64,000 nucleotides of DNA from Escherichia coli (lineage in GTDB: Bacteria; Pseudomonadota; Gammaproteobacteria; Enterobacterales; Enterobacteriaceae): assembly GCF_044324785.1 (NCBI RefSeq), contig NZ_CP172127.1; one strand, given 5' to 3'. A program made the translations under genes and the position numbers. A model generated the notes under the pieces. That model was not told where the DNA came from. It was given only the letters and a program-made list of their open reading frames with translations, and made no database searches. This document shows, one piece after another, positions 11,878 through 31,865 of the stretch (positions within the stretch are counted from its first letter, which is position 1; the number at the start of each line of letters is the position of its first letter).

Positions 11878-12012
11878 GATTGGTCGCTCGCGGTGCATCC
11901 GACACTGGCAGTGTTGCCTGATGCGCCGCTATTCGCGTCTTATCAGGCATATACCAGAGATAGCGAACCATAGGTCGGATAAGGCGCTCGCGCCGCATCC
12001 GACAAATGTGTT
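11878..12012. repeat. REP/BIME cluster between ruvB and znuB
   Basis: Three REP-like units (ggtcgctcgcggtgcatccgaca; gcctgatgcgccgc...gcgtcttatcaggc; ggtcggataaggcgctcgcgccgcatccgaca). Confidence 0.7.
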
Positions 12013-17084: not shown

Positions 17085-17128
17085 TGAACTGTAGGCCGGA
17101 TGAGGCGTTTTCGCCGCATCCGGCAACG
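17085..17128. repeat. REP element
   Basis: gtaggccggatgaggcgttttcgccgcatccggca matches REP consensus. Confidence 0.7.
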
Positions 17129-17131
17129 TAC

Positions 17132-26188: not shown

Positions 26189-26514
26189 TGGCCTCTGATA
26201 ATTCGATTGACCGTCGGCGGATGCGGCGCGAGTGCCTGGTCCGCCCTACAAGGCACCTCAATCGGAGGCCTGAGAAGACGCAACAGCGTCGCATCGGGCA
26301 ATCAGCATCAAACAATGCCACTCAAAACGTCAAATTACTTTCACCTAAAATACCCTTATCACCTGATATACAGTGAACACCTTACCTGGCGCGAATTTCT
26401 TTGAATAACGGCCTGCCGACCCGCTTATTTGCGCATCTTTTGTCTCGATATACATTTTCTGACATCCTCATCCGCTATGCTACAGGCACTAAAAATGGTT
26501 ATTGAGGAGCAAAT

Positions 26515-27174
26515 ATGGCTAACTGGTTAAATCAACTGCAATCCCTGCTTGGGCAAAGCAGTTCTTCTACCTCCTCGTCTGCGGATCAGGGATTGGGCAA
26601 ACTTTTAGTGCCTGGCGCATTAGGCGGACTGGCTGGGCTGCTGGTCGCAAATAAATCAGCACGTAAACTTCTTACGAAATATGGCACCAACGCGTTGCTG
26701 GTTGGCGGCGGAGCGGTAGCGGGTACGGTGCTGTGGAATAAATACAAAGATAAAATTCGCGCGGCGCATCAGGACGAACCGCAGTTTGGCGTGCAGAGTA
26801 CGCCGCTGGATGAGCGTACGAAACGTTTGATCCTTGCGCTGGTCTTTGCCGCTAAAAGTGATGGTCATATTGATGCCAAAGAACGTGCGGCAATCGACCA
26901 GCAATTGCGTGAAGCCGGCGTGGAAGAGCAGGGGCGTGTACTCATTGAGCAGGCAATCGAACAACCGCTGGATCCACAACGCCTGGCTACCGGGGTCCGC
27001 AATGAAGAAGAGGCGTTGGAAATCTATTTCCTGAGCTGCGCGGCTATTGATATTGACCATTTTATGGAACGCAGTTACCTGAATGCACTGGGTGACGCGC
27101 TGAAAATCCCGCAGGATGTTCGTGAAGGCATTGAACGCGATCTCGAACAGCAAAAACGCACTTTGGCGGAATAA
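26515..27174 (+). CDS. yebE: Inner membrane protein YebE (DUF533)
   Basis: 219-aa ORF recognised as YebE. Confidence 0.9.
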
Positions 27175-27306
27175 TTCCGCTCTCTGGATAGCCTGAAGTT
27201 GACGATTTCGGGCTATCCAGAACCGCACAGCCATTTGAGCAGGCTGATTTTCTCTGTCTGCATAACATTCGATATCCGCGCCATTACCTGTCATCATGTG
27301 ACTGCT

Positions 27307-27326
27307 CCCCGCCCTGTCGGGCGAGG
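27307..27326. repeat. Right-end subterminal hairpin of the IS (CCCCGCCC-tgtc-GGGCGAGG)
   Basis: Imperfect palindrome 12 nt past the tnpB stop codon; near-identical copy at the other end. Confidence 0.65.
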
Positions 27327-27337
27327 CTTCCCACTTC

Positions 27338-28507
27338 TTAAGCCGCAACCGTCTGTGTGACGGATTTACGCTGGCCTCCATGGGCAGAAACGACGAGTCC
27401 CGCCGCTTGTAATTCCAGTATGCCCTTGCGTTTGATGTTGAGCGCCGCGTTGATATCGCGGTCATGTTCAACTCCACACTCTGGACACTGCCAGATGCGC
27501 TTATGTAATGGCATCTCCGACATTTTGTGACCGCAGCAGTGGCAGGTCTTCGAACTGGCGAACCATTGATCCAGTTTCACCAGATGCACACCTTTCTCTG
27601 TTGCTTTGTATTCCAGTTTTGTGATGAATCCAGACCATCCAGCATCGCCTATCGCACGAGCCAGATGGTGATTTTTCATCATATTTGCCGTTTTCAATGT
27701 CTCGACAATTACCGCTTGGTTTTCGTCAACAATTGCGCGAGATAACTTGTGCTGGAAATCGGCACGGGCACTAGCTACCCGTTCGTGAACGGCTGCAAGT
27801 TGTATTCTGGCTTTGCGCCTGTTTGCGCTCCCTTTTTTCTTACGGGACAGTGCTTTCTGCTTCCGGCGCAGGTTGCGACTTGCATTGATTAGGTGGCGGG
27901 GACTGGCAATTTTATTGCCGTCCGATTTGATGACAAAATGCGCCAGCCCCATATCCAGCCCTGTCACATTTGATATCAGTGCGGGCTTTGCCGGCGCTTC
28001 CATCCCGTCGTCACAGAGTAACGACGCGTAGTATTTCCCGGTTGCGCTGCGGCTCAACGTGATACTTTTCAGCATTCCCGTAATTTCACGATGTAAACGC
28101 GCTTCAATCGGCAAGATTTTCGGTATTTTTATCGCACCATCAAGGACTTTTATGCCAACACAATGATAGCTCGATTGTCTGCCGTGTTTACTTTTAAAGG
28201 TTGGTTTACCTGCTTTCAGTTTCGGATTGAAAAAGTTAGAAAAAGCCACGTCGAGGTTAATTACCGCCTGCTGCAACGCAATAGAATCATATTCTTTAAG
28301 CCATCCATACCGGCGGGATTTCTTCGCCACTGCAAGCAGTGGTTTGAGGTCTTTACGCGGGTTTAAATTTACGCGGTGCCGCTGGTAAGAATGTTTCTTG
28401 ATATGCAGAGCTTTGTTGTACGCAAAACGCACTGCACCGAACTGGGCGTTGATAAATTCAGCCTGTTCTGGTGTCGGGTAGATGCGTACTTTTGTTGCTC
28501 TTAACAT
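27338..28507 (-). CDS. tnpB: TnpB (IS605 OrfB family; RuvC-like RNA-guided endonuclease)
   Basis: 389-aa ORF; RuvC-I GLDMG, RuvC-II E in VIVETL, zinc finger CHCCGH...CPECG, RuvC-III HDRDINAALNI. Confidence 0.9.
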   Translation of the reverse strand: MLRATKVRIYPTPEQAEFINAQFGAVRFAYNKALHIKKHSYQRHRVNLNPRKDLKPLLAVAKKSRRYGWLKEYDSIALQQAVINLDVAFSNFFNPKLKAGKPTFKSKHGRQSSYHCVGIKVLDGAIKIPKILPIEARLHREITGMLKSITLSRSATGKYYASLLCDDGMEAPAKPALISNVTGLDMGLAHFVIKSDGNKIASPRHLINASRNLRRKQKALSRKKKGSANRRKARIQLAAVHERVASARADFQHKLSRAIVDENQAVIVETLKTANMMKNHHLARAIGDAGWSGFITKLEYKATEKGVHLVKLDQWFASSKTCHCCGHKMSEMPLHKRIWQCPECGVEHDRDINAALNIKRKGILELQAAGLVVSAHGGQRKSVTQTVAA

Positions 28508-28563
28508 AATCAGCGCTCATTGATATAATGCTTTTATTTTAACACTTTAGGTGGATATATCAA

Positions 28564-28989
28564 TTGAGTAATCATGATGATTTACTGGCGGGATTTCTCC
28601 GCAAACGACACAGTGTCAGTAAGCTGGTTGTGCACCTTATTTTTACGACAAAGTATCGACGCAAACTATTCGACAGTCAGATGATCGCTCAGTTGCGTGA
28701 GGCTTTTGGCTCCGCTGCGGCAAAGCTTGAATGCGAAATTATTGAGATGGACGGGGAGCCAGACCATGTACACCTGCTGGTTGCCTACCCGCCAAAACTG
28801 GCGGTCAGTGTGATGGTCAATAATTTAAAATCGGTATCATCACGTTTGCTACGCCAGCAGAACGCGCATTTACGTATGCAGAGTAAAACGGGGCTTTTGT
28901 GGTCGAGATCGTACTTTGTCTGTAGCACCGGAGAGGCAACGATTGAAACGCTCAGAGCCTACGTTCAGAGTCAGTCAACACCTGATTGA
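28564..28989 (+). CDS. tnpA: IS200-type Y1 (HuH) transposase TnpA
   Basis: 141-aa ORF; TTKYRR block, HuH motif HVHLLV, C-terminal catalytic Tyr (RAYVQSQ); only in-frame start is TTG at 28564. Confidence 0.85.
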   Translation: MSNHDDLLAGFLRKRHSVSKLVVHLIFTTKYRRKLFDSQMIAQLREAFGSAAAKLECEIIEMDGEPDHVHLLVAYPPKLAVSVMVNNLKSVSSRLLRQQNAHLRMQSKTGLLWSRSYFVCSTGEATIETLRAYVQSQSTPD

Positions 28990-29022
28990 TCTTTAAAGCC
29001 CTGCGGGCTTTTCGCCTTATAT

Positions 29023-29044
29023 CCCCGCCCGCATTGGGCGAGGG
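29023..29044. repeat. Left-end subterminal hairpin of the IS (CCCCGCCC-gcatt-GGGCGAGGG)
   Basis: Near-identical to hairpin at 27307-27326; lies just beyond the tnpA terminator-like hairpin (28994-29011). Confidence 0.65.
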
Positions 29045-29118
29045 TTTACGGCGTTTTTCGCTAAGCAATGACTACCCTGTTTCGCTTGCATCTCCGGTGA
29101 GTTTTGCCACCCTTATAA

Positions 29119-31865
<2,747 letters not shown>

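Follow-up and report, generated by a model that had tools for sequence, protein, structure and literature searches.

The window analysed here, 64,000 nucleotides of one strand of an Escherichia coli contig (NZ_CP172127.1), contains directly behind the yebE gene a stem-loop (27183–27221, + strand) that ranks first in stability among 42,638 45-nt windows covering both strands of the entire 64 kb. The stem-loop is host sequence, not sequence of the neighbouring insertion element ISEc46, and it belongs to a single-copy block that is limited to part of the genus Escherichia. It most likely belongs to the untranslated 3' part of the yebE message. By analogy with described E. coli transcripts, we regard it with moderate confidence as a protective stem-loop that would define the 3' end of the yebE mRNA, Rho acting on a C-rich stretch beyond it.

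Position, anatomy and stability of the hairpin

yebE (26515–27174, + strand) encodes a protein of 219 amino acids of the DUF533/TerB family, according to the ORF list and the RefSeq annotation of near-identical records, and is regulated by Cpx (PMC6737893). Its stop codon, TAA, occupies 27172–27174, and eight nucleotides lie between this codon and the stem, which starts at position +9. The arms tctggatagcc (27183–27193) and ggctatccaga (27211–27221) form a perfect 11-bp inverted repeat with a 17-nt spacer, so that the coordinates given in an earlier sequence-only reading of this DNA, including the distance of 9 nt from the yebE stop, are confirmed by direct reading. The same reading had placed the repeat about 75 bp from the right end of the insertion element, and alignments with the empty site and with a plasmid copy of the element put this distance at 76 nt. 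When folded as + strand RNA, the repeat becomes an 18-bp stem (27183–27200 with 27204–27221) closed by a GAC triloop (27201–27203), a nearly perfect helix without bulges in which three of the 18 pairs are G-U. The predicted energy is -27.2 kcal/mol on the + strand (about -27 to -28 kcal/mol) and -19.9 kcal/mol on the - strand, while shuffles of the same sequence give -7.6 ± 2.6 kcal/mol, corresponding to z = -7.7 for the hairpin.

The bare 11-bp repeat is only mildly improbable when judged by chance alone. A random 64-kb sequence with the composition of the window would hold about 0.9 perfect inverted repeats of at least 11 bp for spacers of 3–60 nt and 0.24 for spacers of 3–20 nt, while the window holds eight and seven, respectively. 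The hairpin nevertheless stands out because it takes the top rank among the folds, follows the stop codon directly and is conserved. A smaller 7-bp hairpin, GGCGGAA-UAA-UUCCGCU (27165–27181, + strand; -8.1 kcal/mol), carries the yebE stop codon in its loop and lies directly 5' of the main hairpin; sequence comparison finds no conservation of it among other Escherichia lineages, and it is probably incidental.

In E. coli K-12, the hairpin is present with one substitution in the loop and is expected near NC_000913.3 1,929,001–1,929,039 on the minus strand. The K-12 annotation has neither a feature nor a repeat between yebE and ptrB, so the K-12 map gains an unannotated and unusually strong 3' stem-loop that has no U-tract. 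An Rfam scan of 26300–29300 with E <= 10 yields chance matches only, none of which reaches a family threshold; on the hairpin itself, the match is to mir-4662 with 21.9 bits against a gathering score of 97.

Host origin and maintenance of the structure

The hairpin opens an extra block of about 120 nt that starts right after the yebE stop codon. The part of this block to the left of the insertion element occupies 27175–27297 (+ strand), and the block runs a few bases past the insertion point (alignment A4). The 126-nt stretch after the yebE stop codon is found once per genome in 5425 of the 5426 complete E. coli genomes at an identity of at least 95%, the highest copy number being two, whereas the insertion element is present at the yebE site in only 400 of the 5426; the hairpin is therefore host sequence. 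It is also retained in the IS-free E. coli strain 124.

The distribution was followed by reading the region 3' of yebE in 80 species-representative genomes, with 76 loci from outside Escherichia. The genome scan supplied four non-coli Escherichia lineages, a set that does not include E. albertii, E. marmotae and E. ruysiae. The block occurs in E. coli and in the lineages L003, L004, L017 (E. whittamii) and L019, and it is missing from all 76 loci of non-Escherichia Enterobacteriaceae (Citrobacter, Salmonella, Enterobacter, Kosakonia, Buttiauxella, Cedecea and others). Outside Escherichia, the yebE-ptrB spacer is short, and most of it is a conserved core, GTTTCGCTTGCAT...TTTTGCCACCCTTATAGGATG, which also lies at 29079–29122 of the window. 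E. fergusonii has a short yebE-ptrB spacer as well, without the block, and most simply the block would have been gained after the split from E. fergusonii. Since most Enterobacteriaceae do without the hairpin, it cannot be essential to yebE expression.

No match to the block is found among phages. Five matches are found among plasmids, all in records of 0.4–4.9 Mb, which apparently are chromosomal sequences filed as plasmids. A scan of metagenomes with the core ATAGCCTGA-N9-14-TCGGGCTAT returns 118 matches, close to a rough chance expectation, and those homologous to the hairpin come only from yebE loci of E. coli and of lineage L004. Many of the others are hairpins unrelated to it that precede T-runs; they apparently represent terminators from other organisms. 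Membership in a repeat family (REP or MITE) is rejected, the block being single-copy and without a plasmid or phage match, and small ORFs across the block are unlikely to be coding, as an indel between L017 and L019 would break any reading frame.

The structure is kept where the sequence has changed. The same fold is obtained for all seven distinct hairpin sequences, with energies of -18 to -28 kcal/mol, and the RNAalifold consensus of their alignment is again this hairpin. Across the 14 gap-free outer pairs, 93.9% of the cells are paired, against 16–43% when the partners are slid. One pair changes from G-C to U-A in L017 and L019, one-sided G-U or U-G changes occur at three pairs (one each in E. 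coli strain I2, E. coli strain SCU-172 and L019), and all seven sequences share the U-G pair at alignment columns 17/34. As a sign of structural upkeep, the covariation is suggestive but not decisive: with seven sequences and a single doubly changed pair, the score is equalled by 29 of 500 column shuffles. Pair-breaking changes are seen within E. coli, one in strain SCU-172 and one in a metagenomic variant.

The two diverged lineages were also compared with a mutation simulation. In spite of 7–11 substitutions plus indels, the hairpins of L017 and L019 fold with -20.8 and -18.2 kcal/mol, respectively, with stems of 13–14 pairs, while random mutation of the E. coli hairpin with equal numbers of substitutions and insertions gives -10.1 ± 3.9 kcal/mol in the L017 case and -8.0 ± 3.3 kcal/mol in the L019 case. 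Only 0.9% (L017) and 0.6% (L019) of the simulated sequences are as stable as the real one; L017 and L019 are related, and their two p-values are not independent and amount to roughly one observation. L004 differs too little from E. coli to inform this simulation.

The fold also shows a strand bias. In E. coli, L017 and L019, it is 4–9 kcal/mol more stable on the + strand, since G-U pairs correspond to A-C mismatches on the - strand; L004 is the exception, its - strand being slightly more stable. Overall, this asymmetry suggests that the form that matters is the RNA of the sense strand and not the DNA duplex.

These data bear on the possibility that the hairpin has no function, the block being a stretch of about 120 nt of passenger DNA that an Escherichia ancestor acquired between yebE and ptrB, with the hairpin persisting because the lineages are young. 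That the block is missing in E. fergusonii and in each genus examined outside Escherichia, where yebE and ptrB work without it, is what such a passenger would predict, and the statistically weak covariation and the pair-breaking variants inside E. coli agree with it. However, random mutation preserves energies like those of the diverged lineages in less than 1% of trials, the changes are wobble-compatible on the sense strand only, and no similar sequence exists elsewhere in E. coli or in plasmids or phages to suggest a mobile source. A functionless passenger is thus unlikely.

Proposed formation of the yebE 3' end

The hairpin itself is not a classical intrinsic terminator because it has no U-tract, as the sequence-only reading had also held. 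The 11 nucleotides after the stem, ACCGCACAGCC, contain no T, and a consensus terminator scan calls no site in the yebE-ptrB interval of either the filled or the empty (IS-free) locus. A promoter consensus scan of the filled and empty sites finds nothing at the hairpin. The hairpin shares with canonical terminators a stable stem-loop directly after the stop codon; it differs from them in lacking the U-rich tract of about 7–8 nt after the stem, in being only moderately GC-rich and in escaping the consensus scan.

What follows the stem is a C-rich, G-poor spacer (27222–27297, + strand), which by composition is a candidate Rho-loading (rut-like) region. The 76–80 nt 3' of the hairpin contain 29–30% C and 15–17% G, and the excess of C over G reaches the 96th percentile among 80-nt + strand windows of the whole stretch. 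The spacer includes a weak 5-bp hairpin (27228–27246; -7.1 kcal/mol, z = -0.09 against shuffles) followed by the U-rich ATTTTCTCT, 26 nt downstream of the main hairpin; L017 and L019 have other sequence in the place of this small hairpin. The small hairpin with its U-rich tail (27228–27257) is rejected as a real terminator, being weak, at the level of shuffles and unconserved.

A class of 3' ends with this layout has been described. At steady state, E. coli transcripts terminated by Rho have been reported to end directly behind a stable stem-loop, which is about as strong as an intrinsic terminator hairpin but has no U-rich tail and is followed by a mild enrichment of C over G; such stem-loops block trimming by PNPase and RNase II after diffuse termination further downstream (PMC6061677). 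A hypothesis of Peters et al. has been linked with such protective 3' stem-loops (Dar and Sorek, 2018; PMC6061677). The yebE hairpin resembles this class in being a stable stem-loop past the coding sequence, without a U-tail, with C over G downstream and not of the REP type. It differs in the unusual length and strength of its stem (18 bp, -27 kcal/mol), which exceeds typical terminator and protective stems in length, and in occurring only in part of Escherichia. Most likely, it would be an unannotated, ordinary case of the class.

Following this analogy, the stem-loop would form once the ribosome has left the stop codon, which lies 8 nt upstream, and RNA polymerase would continue into the C-rich, G-poor stretch of 76 nt and past it. 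Rho might load on this stretch and terminate transcription diffusely, and PNPase or RNase II would then trim the tail in the 3'-to-5' direction and stall at the base of the hairpin. The yebE message, which is induced by Cpx, would thereby acquire an exact, protected 3' end and be set apart from ptrB. Of the readings offered by the sequence-only annotation for this structure, a Rho-dependent or RNase-processing element fits best, and a protein-binding site is disfavoured by the strand asymmetry, in which the invariant U-G and the other G-U pairs exist only in the + strand RNA. The case that the sequence-only annotation named for its own refutation, a hairpin absent from or unconserved in empty-site genomes and with no transcript ends mapping to it, is not borne out, since IS-free genomes have the hairpin in conserved form. 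Among the entries covered of the eLife 3'-end, TERMITe, SMRT-Cappable-seq and TRS data, none is for yebE, which is an absence of data and not a negative result; for K-12 coordinates near 1,929,000, the eLife and TRS data gave matches only to unrelated six-digit positions. A literature search on yebE with Hfq, RNase, terminator or Rho found nothing relevant.

A boundary between yebE and ptrB is plausible from the ptrB side, since ptrB has a conserved upstream core of its own and an RpoS SELEX peak has been placed in the ptrB-yebE spacer (PMC5493296). ptrB lies on the same strand as yebE and starts with ATG at 29146. The core, GTTTCGCTTGCAT...TTTTGCCACCCTTATAAGATG (29079–29122, + strand), is nearly invariant in about 80 Enterobacteriaceae yebE loci when read by eye, and ISEc46 leaves it intact. 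It is probably the promoter or operator region of ptrB, and a standard sigma-70 scan calls no promoter at 29079–29122.

Among the alternatives that give the hairpin a role in transcription or processing, it might act as a leaky, non-canonical and factor-assisted terminator or attenuator, pausing the polymerase, for example with NusA or NusG, and so tuning yebE transcription into ptrB. A very strong hairpin between two genes on the same strand suits this idea, as does the U-rich ATTTTCTCT behind the second small hairpin, and mixed or transitional terminators with reduced U content have been noted as possible (Dar and Sorek, PMC6061677). The lack of any T in the 11 nt past the stem, the empty terminator scan and the shuffle-level stability of the second hairpin, which is replaced in L017 and L019, speak against it, and a leaky terminator is accordingly rather doubtful.

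Cleavage of the stem by RNase III, which would either destabilize the yebE mRNA or separate the yebE and ptrB transcripts, is another alternative. A helix of 18 bp exceeds the usual length of terminator stems and comes near the preference of RNase III, and its 18 pairs without bulges make it long and nearly perfect. However, E. coli RNase III substrates typically span roughly two helical turns, of which the stem falls short, and L017 and L019 retain only 13–14 pairs; the literature search for cleavage likewise returned nothing relevant. RNase III processing is improbable on this evidence. There is also a small chance that the hairpin is a regulatory RNA element of recent acquisition, found in only part of Escherichia, for instance a site for RNase III or an RNA-binding protein that sets the fate of the yebE mRNA in Cpx stress. 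In strains with the insertion element, such a hairpin could serve as a barrier on either strand to pairing between yebE read-through RNA and the antisense tnpB/omega-RNA region, or limit the 3' tail of the omega-RNA precursor.

Action at the level of DNA, whether as a cruciform or as an operator palindrome that binds a dimeric protein, is very improbable. The perfect 11-bp arms do constitute a true DNA palindrome, and in the empty site they lie about 125 bp upstream of the conserved core of ptrB, but a 17-bp spacer is atypical for operators and no promoter-like site is nearby. In addition, pairing within the spacer is kept only via G-U, the invariant U-G being a mismatch in DNA, and the half-site sequence varies among the lineages while its pairing is kept.

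REP/BIME elements, which come in many copies per genome, are likewise intergenic and transcribed palindromes that could stall 3' exonucleases; the yebE hairpin differs from them in being single-copy and unrelated in sequence to the REP-like hairpins of the window. These REP-like hairpins, GCCGGATG...CATCCGGC (17086–17130, 11966–12010 and 1747–1791), are among the most stable folds of the window.

The end of yebE is built differently from genus to genus. Buttiauxella and Cedecea have a canonical terminator here, GCCGGGTTAATCCCGGC followed by ATTTTCC, whose loop includes the yebE stop codon; it was read in loci L045, L049, L050, L055–L057, L059, L064 and L067–L069, from roughly 12 nt upstream to 30 nt downstream of the stop codon. 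An intrinsic terminator is thus seen in Buttiauxella and Cedecea, a hairpin without a U-tract in Escherichia, and nothing obvious in Citrobacter and Salmonella. As other genera have a true terminator here or nothing, the locus offers a tidy natural case of 3'-end structures gained or exchanged between termination modes. Its practical value is small, and a specialist would find no surprise in it.

ISEc46 and the TTAG site

The insertion element downstream of the hairpin is ISEc46, a 1763-bp member of the IS200/IS605 family (27298–29060, - strand), delimited by RefSeq annotation and by alignment with the empty site and a plasmid copy. The ORF list places tnpB at 28507–27338 (- strand) and tnpA at 28564–28989 (+ strand), and RefSeq names the corresponding ORFs in near-identical records an InsQ/TnpB-family RNA-guided endonuclease and an ISEc46-family IS200/IS605 transposase. 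The right end at 27298, beside the 3' end of tnpB, reads GTGACTGCTCCCC..., and the left end at 29060 reads ...GGCGTTTTTCG, followed by CTAA; a subterminal imperfect palindrome, CCCGCCC..GGGCGAGG, is present at both ends.

IS200/IS605 elements sit 3' of a target such as TTAG. The tetranucleotide at the left end of ISEc46 (29061–29064, CTAA on the + strand and TTAG on the tnpB strand) was identified from the alignment of the filled and empty sites and from the plasmid copy. TTAG occurs once in the empty and once in the filled site, and it also stands beside the left end of the plasmid copy (two of two sites). On the tnpB strand, the IS-free site reads TTAG|ATGATGACAGG, with ISEc46 placed 3' of TTAG. 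The TTAG and the right-end flank in IS-free genomes have the layout of a TAM plus guide, which would let TnpB recut the emptied donor site.

A TnpB guide usually measures 16–20 nt and abuts the right end of the element. From this architecture and the boundary alignment, the flank equivalent to the guide, ATGATGACAGGTAATGGCGC on the tnpB strand, would run from 27297 down to about 27278 (- strand), at least 57 nt from the hairpin and without overlap. The suggestion in the sequence-only reading that a guide would be drawn from near the hairpin is not supported by this geometry, as the hairpin ends at 27221.

That reading had also linked the hairpin to the insertion and proposed comparing it with IS-free genomes and with other copies of the element; neither comparison bears the link out. 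The hairpin lies outside ISEc46, and it is present and conserved in IS-free E. coli, which distinguishes it from the end hairpins of IS200/IS605 elements, which lie inside the element and move along with it. Seven other insertion sites were compared, all on plasmids: an additional copy of ISEc46 in E. coli, and six copies of 81–99% identity in E. coli, Klebsiella, Shigella and Aeromonas. At these sites, the 150 nt that border the right end on the outside are mutually unrelated, and none of the seven has a hairpin resembling that of yebE, their best folds reaching -9 to -25 kcal/mol at varying positions and on varying strands. The hairpin arms, TCTGGATAGCC..GGCTATCCAGA, show no similarity to the subterminal CCCGCCC..GGGCGAGG of ISEc46.

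An attraction of ISEc46 or its TnpA by the host hairpin, or use of the hairpin as the source of a TnpB guide, is therefore hardly credible. IS200/IS605 transposition employs single-stranded DNA hairpins, and the yebE hairpin resembles a subterminal hairpin or omega-RNA guide of this family in lying near a right end, only 76 nt away. It differs from them in being outside the element, dissimilar in sequence, not abutting the right end and present in essentially all E. coli, with ISEc46 in only a minority, and the common feature of both sites examined is the TTAG at the left end. From these comparisons, ISEc46 appears to be an unrelated later arrival at the TTAG site. Separating the host feature from the element leaves a clean annotation of the ISEc46 boundaries, the TTAG target and the guide-equivalent flank.

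Several minor observations concern the element itself. In many plasmids of E. coli, Shigella and Salmonella, the match to ISEc46 is confined to the first 38 nt of its right end, with 97–100% identity, which looks like a solo right-end fragment or a hairpin-only derivative. Only 13 plasmid records have the full left end. Three plasmid relatives (85–99% identical) have unrelated plasmid genes at the expected position of the left end, and they would therefore be truncated or tnpB-only derivatives without tnpA. A sub-threshold Rfam match to HgcC (27285–27397, - strand; 15 bits against a gathering score of 50, E = 2.3) covers the tnpB 3' end and the right end, where the omega-RNA scaffold should lie. 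In the 56-nt gap between tnpB and tnpA, the interval 28501–28563 holds two strong promoter-like sites in opposite directions, TTAACA-17-TATAAT on the + strand (11/12 matches) and TTGATA-16-TAAAAT on the - strand (10/12 matches).
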